Counted from the stretch's first letter, positions 53,931-60,108 are shown. The stretch is DNA of 64,000 bases from Chitinispirillaceae bacterium (GCA_046538945.1 JBKHHW010000001.1:17765-81764), one strand, 5' to 3'. Translations and numbers: made by a program. The notes: generated by a model not told the origin, from the letters alone.

Positions 53931-53956
53931 AAAAAAAAAGGGGGATCAAATCCCCC
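53931..53956 (-). terminator. Rho-independent terminator after the carboxyltransferase-BCCP gene
   Basis: Minus-strand RNA reads GGGGGAU-UUG-AUCCCCC followed by U9. It starts 5 nt after the stop codon. Confidence 0.85.
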
Positions 53957-53961
53957 AACTT

Positions 53962-55992
53962 TCAGATTTCCTCGATTCCGATGAGCGGCTGATCTTTATC
54001 CACCGCCTCACCATCCTGCACCAAGACTTTGACGATCTTGCATTTTACCGGAGAGGAGATTTCGTTGAAAAGCTTCATAGCCTCTACGATACACACCTTC
54101 CCCCCTGCTTCCACGACATCGCCTTCCTTAACAAAGGAAGGCTTTCCCGGGCCGGGGGCGGAATAGAATGTGCCTACGAGAGGGGCATTAATGGTGCGGC
54201 TGAAGGATTCTTCCTTTTTCGCTTCCGGCTCTGCTTGTGCAGCGGAAAGCTGTTCTGCTTTCTTTGCCTGGGGCTGAGCCTGTGCGGCAGCAGAATCGGC
54301 CACGGTCACATCCACCGAAGGTTGCGCTGGCATGGATGTTACGGGTGCACTGCCGGCCGGCCTCACAGACAGATGATAATCACCCTTGCGGAACACTATC
54401 TCCTCCATCTTCAAACCGTCTATTTTCTGAAGAAGCTCACCGGCAACCCCTTCAATATTCAGAGACGCTGCGGGAGCTGGCGGAGCCTCGGGGCGCTCAG
54501 TTTCGGGTTTGGGTTCAGGTTTGGCTTTCCCTTTCAAAAGTTCCTCAACTGCCTCATCCTGCTGTCTGACTTTCTGAAATTCGATTTCTGCAGGTGATTC
54601 AGGACGCTCCTCAGAGGGAAGAGCACGCCACTTGAAATACTCAAGTGCCGGTTCAGGAAGAAGCACATAGGAGATGATATCCTCTTCATGCTGAATGAGA
54701 GCGGGATCCACACCGTCCGTTGCCTTTGGCAGCATCGGACTTAGCCTATCGGCGGGACGAAATGTGATCGGCTCCTCATCCTTGAGTATTTTCTTGATCA
54801 TCTTTTCAGAGATAGGGGCTGGCGATCTTCCGTAAAGACCTTTCACATAATCCCTTACTTCATTAGGAACGATCTTGTAACGTTCACCCGAAATCACATT
54901 CATGACCGCCTGAGTACCCACTATCTGACTTGTGGGAGTGACAAGCGGGGGATACCCCAGATCCTCGCGAACTTTGCTCACTTCATCCAGTACCTCCGGA
55001 AGTTTGTCAAGCGCCTTCTGCATTTCAAGCTGAGAGCGGAAATTGGAGATCATCCCTCCGGGAATCTGATGGATAAGAATCTCCGGATCTATGTAAGCGA
55101 CCGAAGCAGATGAAGTTTTACGCTTGGGGGCCAATTCGGCAAAATACCTGGCGGTCTTTTCCATGGCCTCCATATCAAGTTCTGCCGAATAATTAGTCTC
55201 CGAGAAAATTGCAGCCATAGTTTCCACCGGAGGCTGGGAAGAAAAGCCGGACATGGGCGAAATGGCACAGTCGATTGCTCCGGCACCGGCTCTTACACCT
55301 TCCACATAAGTCGCAATCGCCATTCCGCTCGAGGCATGGCAGTGCAGCTGAATCGGAATATTCACTTCCTTCATAAGTGCCGAAACAAGACGTTCTGCGG
55401 AGATCGGCGAGAGAATCCCCGCCATATCCTTTATACAAAGAGAATCGGCTCCCAAAGCCACCTGCTCTTTTGCATACTGCACGTACTTTTCAACCGTATG
55501 TACAGGTGATAACGTGTAGGCCAGAGTTCCCTGAGCGTGCCCGCCGTGTTTTTTAACAGCTTTTATCGCGGCTTCCAGATTTCTGGAATCATTGAGAGCA
55601 TCGAACACTCTGAAAATGTCAATCCCGTTTTCACACGCCAGAGCCACAAAACGATCCACCACATCATCAGCATAATTACGGTAGCCAACCAGGTTCTGTC
55701 CTCTGAGAAGCATCTGCAAAGGAGTGTTCTTCGCCTTCGACTTGATGAGACGAAGACGCTCCCAAGGATTCTCCCGCAAAAAACGAAGACATACGTCAAA
55801 AGTCGCTCCTCCCCAGACCTCAAGAGAGTAATACCCGACCTTGTCGATGACATCGATGATATTCATGATATCATCGGTTCTCATGCGGGTGGCCCAAAGA
55901 GACTGATGAGCATCACGCAGAGTCGTGTCGGTCACTCTGAGAGGTATTTTGTGCAGTTGGTCTTCTGTTTTGCTTTTTGGTGATTTGGTCAT
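53962..55992 (-). CDS. Pyruvate/oxaloacetate carboxyltransferase (5S / OadA / PycB type) fused to a complete AccB-type biotin carboxyl carrier module
   Basis: 676 aa. The N-terminus has TDTTLRDAHQSLWATRM (HMGL-like 5S carboxyltransferase) plus the PYC_OADA region. A P/A/E/K-rich linker follows. The last approx. 165 aa resemble full-length AccB: LLQKIDGLKMEEIVFRKGDYHLSVR, an A/P/Q linker, then INAPLVGTFYSAPGPGKPSFVKEGDVVEAGGKVCIVEAMKLFNEI. Confidence 0.85.
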   Translation of the reverse strand: MTKSPKSKTEDQLHKIPLRVTDTTLRDAHQSLWATRMRTDDIMNIIDVIDKVGYYSLEVWGGATFDVCLRFLRENPWERLRLIKSKAKNTPLQMLLRGQNLVGYRNYADDVVDRFVALACENGIDIFRVFDALNDSRNLEAAIKAVKKHGGHAQGTLAYTLSPVHTVEKYVQYAKEQVALGADSLCIKDMAGILSPISAERLVSALMKEVNIPIQLHCHASSGMAIATYVEGVRAGAGAIDCAISPMSGFSSQPPVETMAAIFSETNYSAELDMEAMEKTARYFAELAPKRKTSSASVAYIDPEILIHQIPGGMISNFRSQLEMQKALDKLPEVLDEVSKVREDLGYPPLVTPTSQIVGTQAVMNVISGERYKIVPNEVRDYVKGLYGRSPAPISEKMIKKILKDEEPITFRPADRLSPMLPKATDGVDPALIQHEEDIISYVLLPEPALEYFKWRALPSEERPESPAEIEFQKVRQQDEAVEELLKGKAKPEPKPETERPEAPPAPAASLNIEGVAGELLQKIDGLKMEEIVFRKGDYHLSVRPAGSAPVTSMPAQPSVDVTVADSAAAQAQPQAKKAEQLSAAQAEPEAKKEESFSRTINAPLVGTFYSAPGPGKPSFVKEGDVVEAGGKVCIVEAMKLFNEISSPVKCKIVKVLVQDGEAVDKDQPLIGIEEI

Positions 55993-56013
55993 GACGGGAA
56001 TTCCTCTTGAAAG

Positions 56014-56967
56014 TTATTTGGTGAATTTTCCCATGGCCGCAAACTTTTCAAACCGTTTTGCCATTAATTTCGATAATGAAAGGGATGATAGTTTTTTCAG
56101 ATGTTTCAGAACAGTTTTTTTAATCTCATCTGCGGTCCCCTGGTGATTATGATGCGCTCCTCCCGCGGGTTCCTGCACGATTTCGTCAATCACACCCAGG
56201 GAAAGAAGTGACGTGGCGGTGATCTTCAGCGCCTCGGAGGCCTGAGGTGAAAAGGAAGCATCGCGCCACAGAATGGACGCACAGCCCTCGGGAGAGATGA
56301 CAGAGTAAACCGCATTGGAAAGCATAAGCACCACATCCGCAACCCCGATTCCCAGTGCGCCGCCACTTCCTCCCTCACCTGTCACTATAGTGACAACAGG
56401 GACTTCCAGTCTTGCCATTTCGGTCAGGTTGCGTGCTATTGCCTCGGCCTGCCCCCGTTCCTCAGCTTCCAAACCGGGATATGCTCCCGGAGTATCGATG
56501 AAAGTAACGACCGGGATGTTGTACTTTTCAGCCAGATGCATCAGCCTCATAGCTTTGCGATACCCCTCCGGCTGGGCCATTCCGAAATTCCGTTCTATAT
56601 TCTCTTCAACATTCTTTCCCTTGCTGTGCCCGATCAGCATGACTTTCTGATTATCCAGAGTCGCGAATCCGCCAATCAGCGCATGATCATCACCGTAGCA
56701 GCGGTCTCCATGGAGTTCTACAAAATCTGTAAACATCAGCGAGATGTAATCATGAAGAACAGGACGGCGGGGGTGACGGGCAACCTGAACGGTTTGCCAG
56801 GGAGAGAGATTGCCATAGATCTCCTTCTTGCGCTCCTCGCACTTTCTCTCCAACTCCTCTATCTGAGCGCTGAAATCGCCTTTATTCTCAGCCGCAAGAG
56901 TTTTGAGCTTATTTATGGCTTTTTCCATTTCCGCTATAGGCTTTTCAAAATCAAGCTCACGTTCCAT
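56014..56967 (-). CDS. accA: Acetyl-CoA carboxylase carboxyltransferase alpha subunit
   Basis: 317 aa with VARHPRRP, FIDTPGAYPG and GEGGSGGALG. Confidence 0.95.
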   Translation of the reverse strand: MERELDFEKPIAEMEKAINKLKTLAAENKGDFSAQIEELERKCEERKKEIYGNLSPWQTVQVARHPRRPVLHDYISLMFTDFVELHGDRCYGDDHALIGGFATLDNQKVMLIGHSKGKNVEENIERNFGMAQPEGYRKAMRLMHLAEKYNIPVVTFIDTPGAYPGLEAEERGQAEAIARNLTEMARLEVPVVTIVTGEGGSGGALGIGVADVVLMLSNAVYSVISPEGCASILWRDASFSPQASEALKITATSLLSLGVIDEIVQEPAGGAHHNHQGTADEIKKTVLKHLKKLSSLSLSKLMAKRFEKFAAMGKFTK

Positions 56968-56975
56968 GATGCCTC

Positions 56976-57812
56976 TTACCGGTTGTAATATGAAAGGATT
57001 CTGTAAAGAGTGCTCTTCATCTCTCTCCGATGTACGACTTTGTCAATGAAGCCATGCTCCATCACAAATTCCGCCGTCTGGAAGTCAACGGGAAGTTTCT
57101 GTTTGATCGTCTGCTCGATCACCCGCCGTCCGGCAAATCCCACTAACGCTCTGGGCTCGGCCAGGTTCACATCCCCCACCATCGCATAGGAAGCCGAAAC
57201 ACCGCCTGTGGTGGGATCAGTCAGAACTGAAATGTAGGGAATTTTTCTTTCATTGAGACGGGAAACAGCAGCACAAGTCTTGGCCATCTGCATCAGGGAG
57301 AGAATTCCCTCATGCATTCTGGCACCTCCGGAAGCGGAAAACACAATATAGGGGATTTTGTGATCATAAGCGTAGTTAGCCGCCAGTAAAATCTTCTCAC
57401 CGGTACCCGACCCGAGACTACCGCCTAAAAAACGAAAATCCATCACTCCGATAACCACTTCGAGACCGTTAATCTTACCGGTCCCAGTCACAATGGATTC
57501 ATTCAGCTTAGTTTTTGACCGTGCCTTCTCCACCTTATCCACATAGCTTCCCTTGCTATCTATGAAGGCCAGAGGGTCCGAAGGCCGGATCTGCTCATAC
57601 ATTTCCTTGAAGGTTCCAGAATCGAGAGTAAGACCGATGCGCTCATAAGCGGTCAGTTTTCCATGCCAGTCACAGTTTGGACAGACACTCCGATTGTTGC
57701 TGAAATCCTCTTTGAAAATATGAGCGCCGCAGGATCTACAGCGGATCCATATCTCATCCTGAAGCTTTTTCTTGGCCTCTCGTTCGGATTTGGTCTTGAT
57801 GAACCAAGGCAT
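56976..57812 (-). CDS. accD: Acetyl-CoA carboxylase carboxyltransferase beta subunit
   Basis: 278 aa with an N-terminal zinc ribbon (CRSCGAHIFKEDFSNNRSVCPNCDWH), FLGGSLGS and SASGGARMHEG. Confidence 0.95.
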   Translation of the reverse strand: MPWFIKTKSEREAKKKLQDEIWIRCRSCGAHIFKEDFSNNRSVCPNCDWHGKLTAYERIGLTLDSGTFKEMYEQIRPSDPLAFIDSKGSYVDKVEKARSKTKLNESIVTGTGKINGLEVVIGVMDFRFLGGSLGSGTGEKILLAANYAYDHKIPYIVFSASGGARMHEGILSLMQMAKTCAAVSRLNERKIPYISVLTDPTTGGVSASYAMVGDVNLAEPRALVGFAGRRVIEQTIKQKLPVDFQTAEFVMEHGFIDKVVHRREMKSTLYRILSYYNR

Positions 57813-58141
57813 ACGTCAGTTCCCCGATGGATTGAATTCAAAAAATGCTTATCGACAGCTGGTTCTCACACCGAGGGAGTTCCCCCTCACAAAACCAGAG
57901 TAAACTTACAATATAAATTGTGGATGGGTTTGGTAAACATTTTCTGCGGTAATACAAGATTGTCACAACCGTGCGATCGCATTTTGAATCGGACATTTTG
58001 TACTGACTCGGTATAAACAACCCGGATATTTGGAACTCTTAACTTAAAAATGTATGGAATTATTTCAAAATCGTGCTGTCTTGAAGTAAATTGTGAGCCA
58101 AAGGAAAGGGCAATCAGATCTGTATGACCGGCCTTAATTCA

Positions 58142-58170
58142 TTGCCATACCGTCCAGTTTGGTATATAAT
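58142..58170 (+). promoter_or_regulatory. Sigma70-like promoter for the PAS-GGDEF gene
   Basis: TTGCCA (58142-58147), an exactly 17-nt spacer, then the perfect TATAAT (58165-58170). It lies about 65 nt upstream of the GTG start. Confidence 0.5.
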
Positions 58171-58235
58171 AATGATAAGAGCCTATTGAATGAACAGACA
58201 ACCCGGCTTGATTTGATTCTCTAACGGATGGTTAC

Positions 58236-59408
58236 GTGAAAATTCCTGAATTCAAAAAATTCTGCACACAATTCGGAAAAACAGGCGAAAAACCAGTATT
58301 CCGAATTGTGTTGTTGAATTCAGTATTCGTGTTTTTCAATGCGGCGATTGCCTCCGCCGCCTTCATTCTCCCGCTGAAATGGTACATCCTGCTTCCTATG
58401 CTCGCAGTTCTCCTTCTGTGGAACTGGTTTTTCACTTTTTCACTGAACAAACAGATGGAGTCGGATGCTGCCGCCATCAAAAAAAACGGTCTTCTCTTCA
58501 GACGCTTCCAGAACACAGCCAAATACTTCGAAAGCATCCTCCAGGACACCACAGACATAATCATCTCACTGGATAAGGACAACTTCATCTTCAAATTCAA
58601 CAACGGTGCTCAAAGCCACTTCGGATACAGCCAGGAAGAAATTCTGGGAGTGCCCTTTGAAAGCCTTTTCATAAACCCTGAAGACAGGGAAAAGATCCAT
58701 CGTCCAATAAAGAGCGGATCTAAATCCACCAGCGCGGAAGTGCCGATGAAGACCAAATCCGGGCAGAAAATCATAGTCAACATGTGCATCTCCAAAATGA
58801 AAGACGGTGGCTATGTGGTTACAGCTCAGGACATTACAGAAAAAAAGAAGCTTGAAGAAGAGCTCAAGAGTAAAAACGAGCAACTGAACAAACTTGCCAT
58901 AACCGACAACCTGACCGGACTATTCAACTCCCGCCATTTCTATAAAGCCATCAAGGGCGAACTTTCCCGACTCAAGCGCTATCCGGGACGAAAACTGGCC
59001 ATCATCTACATGGATGTGGATCGCTTCAAGGAATTCAACGACACAGAAGGTCATCAAATGGGAGATCATGTCCTCAGATCCCTGGGGAAAGTGATAGAGG
59101 TATGCATCAGAAAAGATGTAGATGCCGGGTTCAGATACGGTGGTGACGAATTCGTCATCATACTTCCGGATACCGATATGCACCAGGCCAAAGTAGCCGC
59201 TCAAAGAATCCAGAATCAGTTCGGGGCATTCAAATTCGGTCAAACCAGCCTGTCAATCGGAATTGCAGACGCACTGCCGGATGATGATGAGAAAACACTG
59301 GTGCGGCGAGCCGATTTCGCGATGTACAAGTCAAAAAAAGAGGGAAAGGCCAGCATTACCCTTGCCGAACAGTGCCAGGATTCAACTGAAGCCGTCCAGA
59401 ACACATGA
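58236..59408 (+). CDS. Membrane-anchored PAS-GGDEF diguanylate cyclase
   Basis: 390 aa with two N-terminal TM helices, a PAS domain (IISLDKDNFIFKFNNGAQSHFGYSQEEILGVPFESLF) and a GGDEF domain (LFNSRHF...RYGGDEFVIILPD). Confidence 0.85.
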   Translation: MKIPEFKKFCTQFGKTGEKPVFRIVLLNSVFVFFNAAIASAAFILPLKWYILLPMLAVLLLWNWFFTFSLNKQMESDAAAIKKNGLLFRRFQNTAKYFESILQDTTDIIISLDKDNFIFKFNNGAQSHFGYSQEEILGVPFESLFINPEDREKIHRPIKSGSKSTSAEVPMKTKSGQKIIVNMCISKMKDGGYVVTAQDITEKKKLEEELKSKNEQLNKLAITDNLTGLFNSRHFYKAIKGELSRLKRYPGRKLAIIYMDVDRFKEFNDTEGHQMGDHVLRSLGKVIEVCIRKDVDAGFRYGGDEFVIILPDTDMHQAKVAAQRIQNQFGAFKFGQTSLSIGIADALPDDDEKTLVRRADFAMYKSKKEGKASITLAEQCQDSTEAVQNT

Positions 59409-60108
59409 ACATGCATATAGCTCCGCTTGCCGCCACGTTGAGCGACTCCACAGCCTTTTCCAAAATCGGTATTCTGAACACACGGTCAGAGGAGCAGAGC
59501 ACCCCTCTGGTCAAACCACTTCCCTCACTGCCCAAAGCAAGTACGTGTTTTGAAAGACCCGTGAAATCAACATTTTCACTTCCACCCAGATCCGCAGATA
59601 TCAGTTGATAACCGGACTTTCTGAGCTGAGACACACACTTCAAGTAATCATCCGTTCTTCTGATCCAGACAGAAAGCACCGAACCGGCGGTGGACTGAAC
59701 TACCTTGGGAGAAAAAGGATCTGCACAGTTTGCACTCAGAATGCACCCGCAATAACCCAGAGCCGCAGCACTGCGGATCAGGGAACCCACATTTCCCGGG
59801 TCCTGGACGTGTTCCAGAAGCAACACCGCATTGCCTACATTCAGAGGCAGTTGGGATGAATATACCTGAGGAGGTATTCTCACCACCGCGGCTATTCCCT
59901 GAGGTGTGCGCGAAGAACAGATGGAACTCATTTTCTGAGAGGAAATGATCCGTGCACAAACAGAATGATTTTCATACTCTACGACCATTTCTTCTGTGCA
60001 AAGGAGCTCGTCAACATCATTTTCATGCTGGGACAACACCTGCTCCACAGCCCGCTTTCCCTCGATCAGAAAGAAACCCGACTCCCTCCTGACTTTAGAC
60101 TGAGACAA
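59356..60108 (-). CDS. SpoU/TrmH-family RNA 2'-O-methyltransferase
   Basis: 250 aa with FLIEGKRAVEQVL, LLLEHVQDPGNVGSLIRSAAALG, LGSEGSGL, IPI and ESLNVAASGAI. Its 3' end overlaps the convergent GGDEF gene by 53 nt. Confidence 0.8.
   Translation of the reverse strand: MSQSKVRRESGFFLIEGKRAVEQVLSQHENDVDELLCTEEMVVEYENHSVCARIISSQKMSSICSSRTPQGIAAVVRIPPQVYSSQLPLNVGNAVLLLEHVQDPGNVGSLIRSAAALGYCGCILSANCADPFSPKVVQSTAGSVLSVWIRRTDDYLKCVSQLRKSGYQLISADLGGSENVDFTGLSKHVLALGSEGSGLTRGVLCSSDRVFRIPILEKAVESLNVAASGAICMFMCSGRLQLNPGTVRQG

Follow-up and report, generated by a model that had tools for sequence, protein, structure and literature searches.

Organization of the locus

We analyzed a window of 64,000 nucleotides (nt) from a Chitinispirillaceae bacterium (GCA_046538945.1, JBKHHW010000001.1:17765-81764); the window refers to this whole stretch, and positions are counted from its first letter. 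The subject of the analysis is a cluster of three minus-strand genes, namely accD, accA and a gene here termed 5S::AccB, in which a pyruvate/oxaloacetate carboxyltransferase of the 5S type is fused to a biotin carrier of the AccB type. As delimited by open reading frame (ORF) calls and family models, accD (56976-57812) encodes the beta subunit (278 amino acids, aa) and accA (56014-56967) the alpha subunit (317 aa) of the carboxyltransferase of acetyl-CoA carboxylase (ACC), and the fusion gene (53962-55992) encodes a protein of 676 aa.

The gaps between the genes are 8 nt (accD/accA, 56968-56975) and 21 nt (accA/fusion, 55993-56013). An intrinsic terminator on the same strand (53931-53956; GGGGGATTTGATCCCCC at 53956-53940), consisting of a 7-bp G+C stem followed by a T9 tail, starts 5 nt past the stop codon of the fusion gene and closes the operon, and no comparable terminator was detected at either the accD/accA or the accA/fusion junction. 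The initial annotation of this DNA had described three co-directional genes with gaps of this size and a strong terminator solely after the third; the ORFs were found exactly as claimed, as was the position of the terminator. Upstream of accD lies a non-coding region of 423 nt (57813-58235), with a divergent PAS-GGDEF gene beyond it. This region is the putative operon promoter on the minus strand, and the candidate sigma-70-like sites found there (57966-57939 and 57937-57910) are weak, being consensus matches only. By its layout, the sequence confirms accD, accA and 5S::AccB as one minus-strand operon.

Carboxyltransferase subunits AccD and AccA

Both ACC carboxyltransferase subunits are encoded, as had been proposed, and both exceed curated cut-offs. 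AccD scores 371 bits against TIGR00515 (cut-off 317) and also matches Zn_ribbon_ACC, with the Zn ribbon CRSCGAHIFKEDFSNNRSVCPNC located at about 57669-57740 on the minus strand. AccA scores 463 bits against TIGR00513 (cut-off 319) and 491 bits against PF03255, and contains the GEGGSGGALG motif. As these two proteins give the only Carboxyl_trans matches in the genome, AccA/AccD is its sole predicted acyl-CoA carboxyltransferase.

The fusion protein

The first 490 residues of the fusion (54523-55992, minus strand) constitute a PycB/5S-type pyruvate/oxaloacetate carboxyltransferase, made of a TIM barrel and a PYC_OADA domain. The Pfam domains assigned to the whole protein are HMGL-like (residues 19-281), PYC_OADA (305-485) and Biotin_lipoyl (600-672), and this PYC_OADA domain is the only one in the genome. 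Among the more specific models, the protein passes NF006761 'PycB' (787 bits, cut-off 402), while it stays under the cut-offs of TIGR01108 oadA (705 bits, cut-off 756.5) and of the transcarboxylase 5S model NF008984 (505 bits, cut-off 827). In the PDB, the carboxyltransferase domain matches OadA of Vibrio cholerae (2NX9, 488 bits), PycB of Methylobacillus flagellatus (5KS8, 471 bits) and the 5S subunit of Propionibacterium freudenreichii (1RQB, 420 bits). The active-site motifs are found, all on the minus strand, at 55900-55920 (LRDAHQS), 55693-55707 (LRGQN), 55417-55434 (IKDMAG) and 55324-55344 (HCH), and the metal- and substrate-binding motifs LRDAHQS, KDMA, HCH and RGQN are identical in the alignment to all three structures. 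The passed PycB model and these motifs bear out the assignment of the third gene to the 5S/OadA/PycB type. In the databases, homologues of the fusion are variously named PycB, OadA or, in Chitinispirillum alkaliphilum, 'acetyl-CoA carboxylase, biotin carboxyl carrier protein'.

A charged, proline-rich linker (residues 491-509; 54466-54522), whose length and sequence differ among relatives, leads into the AccB-type carrier module (residues 510-676; 53965-54465), which covers nearly the whole of AccB. Within this module, again on the minus strand, the N-terminal segment of AccB (54358-54462) is joined by an A/P/Q linker to the thumb (APGPGKPSF, 54133-54159), beyond which lies the biotinylation motif EAMKL, whose Lys640 is encoded at 54073-54075. 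Residues 519-674 cover the AccB model TIGR00531, which has 156 positions, from position 8 to position 155, with a score of 114.9 bits against a cut-off of 115.2. The carrier aligns to the biotin carboxyl carrier protein (BCCP) of Escherichia coli in its complex with biotin carboxylase (BC; PDB 4HR7) from just past the first residues to the C-terminus, including the N-terminal segment, and the thumb is aligned without gaps (FYSAPGPGKPSFV against FYRTPSPDAKAFI of 4HR7). For short carriers of the 1.3S/MmdC type, the alignment begins only past the thumb. The EAMKL motif, the thumb and the N-terminal AccB segment are kept in all 36 sequences that were aligned among the relatives. On the TIGR00531 and 4HR7 alignments, an AccB-type carrier does reside at the C-terminus of the third gene and is the sole carrier of the cluster, as had been suggested; it is, moreover, the only biotinyl domain genome-wide.

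Biotin enzymes and oxaloacetate sources in this genome

The assembly comprises 3.47 Mb in 280 contigs, is 98.3% complete and carries the operon on contig C130. It encodes a single biotin carboxylase, an accC located on another contig (G000:C197:10574-11902), whose product scores 673 bits against the AccC model TIGR00514 (cut-off 626.5). This accC is flanked by a Sua5-like gene and an unknown gene, with no accB. The window holds neither accC nor pycA, as had been noted at the outset, and profile searches and tblastn revealed no free accB and no pycA in the 98.3%-complete genome. A separate accB-accC operon with a pycA partner, the finding named in advance as speaking for a plain PycB, is thus not what the genome presents; one unlinked accC is.

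The Biotin_lipoyl model matches the fusion and two lipoyl-type proteins, namely the E2 of pyruvate dehydrogenase (ETDKA motif) and a lipoyl-like domain (ESAKS) fused to KAS III beside a fused E1. By these motifs, the fusion is the only biotin protein predicted in the genome; therefore, the fused carrier must serve AccA/AccD, and AccC has no other possible substrate. A tblastn search with all parts of the operon found no second copy of any of them in the genome.

Phosphoenolpyruvate carboxykinase (PEPCK), whether dependent on GTP or on ATP, and phosphoenolpyruvate (PEP) carboxylase were not found in the genome by profile, motif or tblastn searches. Motif scans for PEPCK, PEP carboxylase, pyruvate kinase and malic enzyme returned only a MaeB-type malic-enzyme motif and PPDK, the malic enzyme being recognized at the motif level. 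OadB (PF03977) was sought in the genome without a match; no search was made for OadG. The plsX-fabH-fabD-fabG-acpP-fabF cluster is complete, and a biotin-protein ligase is also encoded.

Census among relatives

Judged by protein names and identical sequences, the order to which this bacterium belongs is the Chitinispirillum/Chitinivibrio group of Fibrobacterota. The census considered 41 genomes, this one and 40 relatives, which include the cultured Chitinispirillum alkaliphilum (G010) and strain ANBcel5 (G008). All but two or three are metagenome bins, with 40-940 contigs and completeness of 83-100%, and this should be considered when referring to the absences reported below.

An AccB-type domain was found in 39 of the 40 relatives and lies within a frame of 631-709 aa in 38 of them, the frame of G025 (267 aa) being apparently broken. 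Of these 39 relatives, 37 show the synteny accD-accA-5S::AccB; in G038, the genes are split over two loci, and one other match lies at a contig end. The single free AccB, in the congener G002 (C56, L147), was set aside as a probable contaminant, as it is located on a 3.5-kb contig with the Bacillota-like order fabG-fabF-accB-fabZ in a bin with 6% contamination.

Using TIGR00514 at E<=1e-50 as the criterion, a biotin carboxylase was found in only 11 of the 41 genomes; among the 30 with a completeness of 90% or more, the number is 9. The remaining 21 of these 30, including bins rated 100% complete, have none. The same search was positive in 13 of 14 control genomes, and a second search, with the AccC of this genome as query, revealed no carboxylase in G005 (100% complete), G012, G032, G038 or G042. 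GTP-PEPCK, in turn, is present in 23 of the 41 genomes. Sixteen of these, all lacking the carboxylase, have the gene immediately upstream of accD and in the same orientation, roughly 30-200 nt away, and such an operon-linked gene occurs in none of the 11 AccC-bearing genomes (Fisher p=0.0026, uncorrected for phylogeny). The phylogenetically independent comparison of accC and PEPCK offered few informative pairs. ATP-PEPCK was found in none of the 41 genomes and PEP carboxylase in two.

As almost all of these genomes are metagenome-assembled genomes (MAGs) in 40-940 contigs, the missing carboxylases might be an artefact of incomplete bins. We regard this as highly improbable: not only do the 21 near-complete genomes just described lack the gene, but its absence is clade-wise, encompassing whole clades of 11, 3, 3 and 2 genomes, and co-varies with the operon-linked PEPCK.

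One relative bears on the possibility that the third gene is simply the alpha subunit of a Na+-pumping oxaloacetate decarboxylase (OAD), unrelated to accDA. G032 carries, on C42 (L159 3454-6804, minus strand), a true sodium-pump cluster, oadG-oadB-oadA, whose OadA has the short type of carrier, in addition to its accDA-linked 5S::AccB fusion. The decarboxylase explanation draws on the JGI name 'oxaloacetate decarboxylase alpha subunit' given to homologues, on OadA being the nearest PDB match and on the genome paper of C. alkaliphilum (PMC4814513), in which neither a pyruvate carboxylase nor PEPCK is reported and three adjacent genes are predicted to encode an OAD sodium pump. However, OadB is absent from the present genome, the fusion falls under the TIGR01108 cut-off, its carrier is of the AccB type rather than of the short OadA type and the true oadGBA cluster of G032 is a separate locus. 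The Na+-pump reading was hence rejected and retains, in our estimate, a negligible probability.

Beyond the order, about 500 protein clusters were found to carry this carrier module on a 5S protein. Other lineages of the phylum possess a canonical accB-accC pair and a single-chain pyruvate carboxylase. In a MAG labelled Kiritimatiellia, the same operon is present with a small ParB_N gene inserted, and adjoins plsX-fabH-fabD.

Loss of the biotin carboxylase and conservation of the operon

Trees were obtained by quick IQ-TREE runs, and the supports given are SH-aLRT values only. The 11 AccCs of the order form one clade (support 94) that branches as the families do, from which it follows that AccC is ancestral and that its absences are losses. 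Mapped on a tree built from the concatenated operon proteins, presence and absence of the carboxylase require no fewer than 6-7 changes of state, and this phylogenetic pattern implies that the biotin carboxylase was lost at least 6 independent times. Gain of accC by lateral transfer in this genus was ruled out, as the AccCs of the order are monophyletic; their identity across the AccC-bearing genera of the family is 77-86%.

In pairs of carboxylase-less genomes, the ratio of nonsynonymous to synonymous rates (dN/dS) was 0.014-0.06 for accD, accA and the 5S part, and 0.07-0.18 for the AccB module in four of five pairs, with dS saturated in the fifth. The operon genes are, therefore, under strong purifying selection in genomes that lack the carboxylase.

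The 5S domain was also placed phylogenetically, as the initial annotation had proposed. The accDA-linked 5S domains form one clade (support 99), apart from the propionibacterial 5S, and their sister clade (L021, L022) consists of 5S::AccB fusions with a biotin carboxylase gene immediately downstream of them. An origin from propionibacterial 5S or from 5S-12S fusions is unsupported, as these occupy separate clades of the 5S tree. The tree suggests a history in which a PycB-type carboxyltransferase was fused to an AccB located upstream of accC, the fusion became linked to accDA, the carboxylase was repeatedly lost and PEPCK was recruited.

The AccC-bearing genome G028 stands out in these trees: the 5S domain of its fusion (C20, L139 7322-9340) is only 47% identical to the others and has a very long branch, and its accD and accA are more divergent as well, with 57-58% identity to those of the present genome. 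This may reflect replacement or relaxed constraint.

The sister clade, with its adjacent carboxylase, is also what would be expected if two ordinary ATP-dependent enzymes, ACC and a two-subunit pyruvate carboxylase, merely shared the carrier and AccC, with transfer between the two sites having no physiological role anywhere. The assignment of the protein to PycB by NCBIfam and the presence of AccC, without PEPCK or PEP carboxylase, in this genome point the same way. Such an account may fit the present genome but cannot fit the family, in which 30 of 41 genomes have no carboxylase that could load the carrier and yet maintain the three genes under strong purifying selection, and in which PEPCK was recruited to the operon in 16 carboxylase-less genomes. 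Taken as a general explanation, we consider it unlikely.

Proposed mechanism

We consider it likely that the operon encodes an enzyme with two carboxyltransferase sites and one swinging carrier, which operates family-wide as a transcarboxylase and whose carrier is, in this genome, loaded by AccC as well. The assembly of the three proteins into one complex, the direction of flux and all catalytic activities are predictions of this model. The AccD/AccA site would interconvert acetyl-CoA and malonyl-CoA, and the PycB/5S site pyruvate and oxaloacetate. As carboxybiotin formed at either site should be usable at the other, the complex would intrinsically be an oxaloacetate:acetyl-CoA transcarboxylase.

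In the family, the 5S site would move CO2 from oxaloacetate to biotin and the AccB arm would deliver it to AccDA, yielding malonyl-CoA for type II fatty-acid synthesis (FAS II). Where PEPCK is linked to the operon, PEP, CO2 and GDP would give oxaloacetate and GTP, after which oxaloacetate and acetyl-CoA would give pyruvate and malonyl-CoA; the carboxyl group would then be CO2 fixed onto PEP with a gain of GTP, and malonyl-CoA would be made at no ATP cost. The methylmalonyl-CoA transcarboxylase reaction is near equilibrium and, by analogy, the transcarboxylation considered here would be as well, being drawn forward by decarboxylative condensation. As the carboxylase-less genomes keep the operon, transcarboxylation would be its only possible mode there, and enzymes of this type probably make malonyl-CoA from oxaloacetate without ATP. 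With somewhat less confidence than in the enzyme itself, we favour the view that most of the order, and probably similar Kiritimatiellia and other anaerobes, lack biotin carboxylase and make all of their FAS II malonyl-CoA by transcarboxylation fed by the operon PEPCK, the carboxylase having been lost at least 6 times once the carrier was fused to 5S.

Several considerations weigh against this interpretation and should be taken into account. AccC is present here, such that ATP-free working is not required in this genome. The N-terminal segment of AccB, which is said from structural work on the E. coli BC-BCCP complex to bind biotin carboxylase, is equally conserved in carboxylase-less lineages; in the 36-sequence alignment, no sequence difference was seen in this segment between carboxylase-bearing and carboxylase-less genomes. 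Eight genomes (G005, G012, G021, G022, G024, G029, G032 and G037) keep the operon without biotin carboxylase, GTP- or ATP-PEPCK or PEP carboxylase, and thus without a recognized source of oxaloacetate. The absences of the carboxylase rest on bin completeness (83-100%) in a set composed nearly entirely of MAGs, and the activity of the bacterial members is deduced from their genes.

In this genome, the retained AccC and the absent PEPCK and PEP carboxylase lead us to propose that AccC loads the shared carrier. The carrier would be charged with bicarbonate and ATP and would feed both AccDA, acting as ACC, and the 5S site, acting as an anaplerotic pyruvate carboxylase, so that the shared carrier probably serves the synthesis of malonyl-CoA and of oxaloacetate; transcarboxylation would remain an intrinsic side capability. 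It could alternatively be argued that the enzyme is a purely ATP-independent transcarboxylase here too, with AccC being a relic or having another role, as accC lies outside the operon, as the family evidently works without AccC and as the malic-enzyme motif might provide a route to C4 acids. Yet AccC exceeds its curated cut-off (673 against 626 bits), is 77-86% identical across the genera that bear it and has the fusion carrier as its sole possible substrate, and neither PEPCK nor PEP carboxylase is there to supply oxaloacetate. We deem this alternative very unlikely, and for this genome retain loading by AccC.

The initial annotation had offered two readings of the cluster, and each holds for a part of the data. 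The first, an ATP-free oxaloacetate:acetyl-CoA transcarboxylase, is strongly supported for the family, where 30 of 41 genomes lack the carboxylase, the operon is kept and PEPCK often heads it, but this genome has AccC. The second, ACC and PycB sharing one carrier with a biotin carboxylase encoded elsewhere, fits this genome at least as well, given its unlinked AccC and its lack of PEPCK and PEP carboxylase, but does not fit the family. The soda-lake alkaliphily of the two cultured AccC-bearing members may, as a matter of speculation, bear on the retention of AccC. High pH makes bicarbonate, which biotin carboxylase uses, abundant and CO2, which PEPCK uses, scarce.

Comparison with known systems

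The closest parallel is the ACCT/PycB malonyl-CoA:pyruvate transcarboxylase of the protists Giardia, Entamoeba, Mastigamoeba and retortamonads (Jordan et al. 2003, pmid 12766347; Barbosa-Cabrera et al. 2012, pmid 22453500; as cited in PMC8136499, PMC7985675 and PMC12308965). It contains the same four modules in the same order, namely AccD-like, AccA-like, pyruvate/oxaloacetate carboxyltransferase and biotin carrier. As the citing papers present it, this enzyme lacks a biotin carboxylase domain, is found together with PEPCK in anaerobes and is proposed to supply malonyl-CoA without ATP. With the concatenated AccD, AccA and fusion sequences as query, many eukaryotic single chains of 1200-1390 aa with this module order were retrieved, including those of Carpediemonas, Trimastix and Aureococcus. 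The bacterial system differs in consisting of three separate polypeptides rather than one chain, in having a full AccB with thumb and N-terminal segment as carrier and, in this genome, in the additional presence of AccC. Moreover, the operon 5S belongs to the two-subunit PycB/OadA/5S group, whereas the eukaryotic 5S groups with single-chain pyruvate carboxylase (SH-aLRT 100). The bacterial operon is thus an independent, split version, and descent of the eukaryotic transcarboxylase from this operon is ruled out for the 5S module by the 5S tree. An ATP-independent activity of the ACCT/PycB type, converting oxaloacetate and acetyl-CoA to pyruvate and malonyl-CoA, is indirectly supported by the gene content of the carboxylase-less relatives. 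No account of a bacterial acetyl-CoA:oxaloacetate transcarboxylase emerged from full-text literature searches.

The methylmalonyl-CoA:pyruvate transcarboxylase of P. freudenreichii (12S/5S/1.3S; 1RQB) likewise relies on one biotin carrier to move CO2, with no use of ATP, between two sites, one being an acyl-CoA carboxyltransferase and the other a homologous 5S site for pyruvate, and its 5S active-site motifs are identical. It differs from the present system in its acyl-CoA site, which is a 12S hexamer there and of the AccA/AccD type here, and in its carrier, which is a free 1.3S there and an AccB-type domain fused to 5S here. The fusion also falls well short of the 5S model NF008984 (505 against 827 bits), and the two 5S occupy separate clades. 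The absence of biotin carboxylase, a feature of the propionibacterial system, applies to 30 of the 41 genomes but not to this one.

Related chains were also encountered. P0020, P0023, P0024, P0026, P0027 and P0031 are bacterial chains of about 985-1013 aa that combine a 5S-type with a 12S/PccB-type carboxyltransferase and have no biotin carrier; by their domains, they look like fused cores of methylmalonyl-CoA:pyruvate transcarboxylases. P0075, P0078, P0087, P0105 and P0108 are PycB-like proteins of 770-820 aa with a PF01597 (glycine-cleavage-H) match and a biotinyl domain, and form their own clade in the 5S tree.

With the PycA/PycB pyruvate carboxylase (M. flagellatus, 5KS8), the fusion shares the passed PycB model (787 bits) and a nearest outgroup clade in which a biotin carboxylase gene lies directly downstream. 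Here, however, there is no adjacent pycA and no second biotin carboxylase, and the neighbours are accD and accA. Residues 446-517 of 5KS8, between carboxyltransferase and carrier, are unaligned, their place being occupied by the N-terminal AccB segment, and the carrier bears the ACC thumb. Heteromeric ACC of the E. coli type is resembled in the canonical AccA, AccD and AccC, which are all above curated cut-offs, and in a carrier that is nearly full-length AccB. It is departed from in that AccB occurs only as the tail of a second carboxyltransferase, neither as a free protein nor in an accB-accC operon, and in that AccC is missing from most relatives. OadGAB, whose OadA from V. cholerae (2NX9) is the best PDB match (488 bits), performs the same half-reaction, from oxaloacetate to carboxybiotin and pyruvate. 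It differs in carrier type and in requiring an OadB that this genome does not have, OadG not having been searched for, and the OAD cluster of G032 is separate from the operon.

To our knowledge, fatty-acid synthesis in bacteria is regarded as having one universal committed step, in which AccABCD spends one ATP to carboxylate acetyl-CoA, and acetyl-CoA carboxylase is an antibiotic target. If the proposed mechanism is true, most of an entire bacterial order would do without biotin carboxylase and derive its malonyl-CoA from oxaloacetate, with one ATP saved per C2 unit, which is relevant to fermenters. It would represent convergent evolution with the transcarboxylase of anaerobic protists, and PEPCK-accD-accA-5S::AccB would be a small, naturally occurring module with which metabolic engineering could provide malonyl-CoA in an ATP-neutral way. 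A widespread annotation would also be corrected, as the names PycB, OadA and AccB are given to one protein.

Additional observations

In the Fibrobacter-like family f10 (G041, G044, G046, G048, G054, G058, G060 and G066), no orthologues of AccA, AccD or AccB-type BCCP were found in near-complete genomes. What these genomes do encode is limited to a carboxyltransferase of the 12S type and a distant 5S-like protein, to which some add a biotin-carboxylase protein of about 1200 aa. Judged by gene content, the malonyl-CoA route of this family is different from both ACC and the accDA-5S::AccB operon.

Elsewhere in the present genome (G000:C80, L016 2646-5968, minus strand), the lipoyl-KAS III fusion mentioned above is a 440-aa protein with an N-terminal lipoyl-like domain (VESAKS) followed by FabH/KAS III. 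Its gene immediately follows that of a 667-aa fused E1 alpha-beta 2-oxoacid dehydrogenase, and the protein may pass branched acyl starters directly to the condensing enzyme. In the window itself, beyond the upstream region of the operon, the PAS-GGDEF gene (58236-59408, plus strand) and a SpoU-like methyltransferase ORF (59356-60108, minus strand) have convergent 3' ends that overlap by 53 nt (59356-59408).

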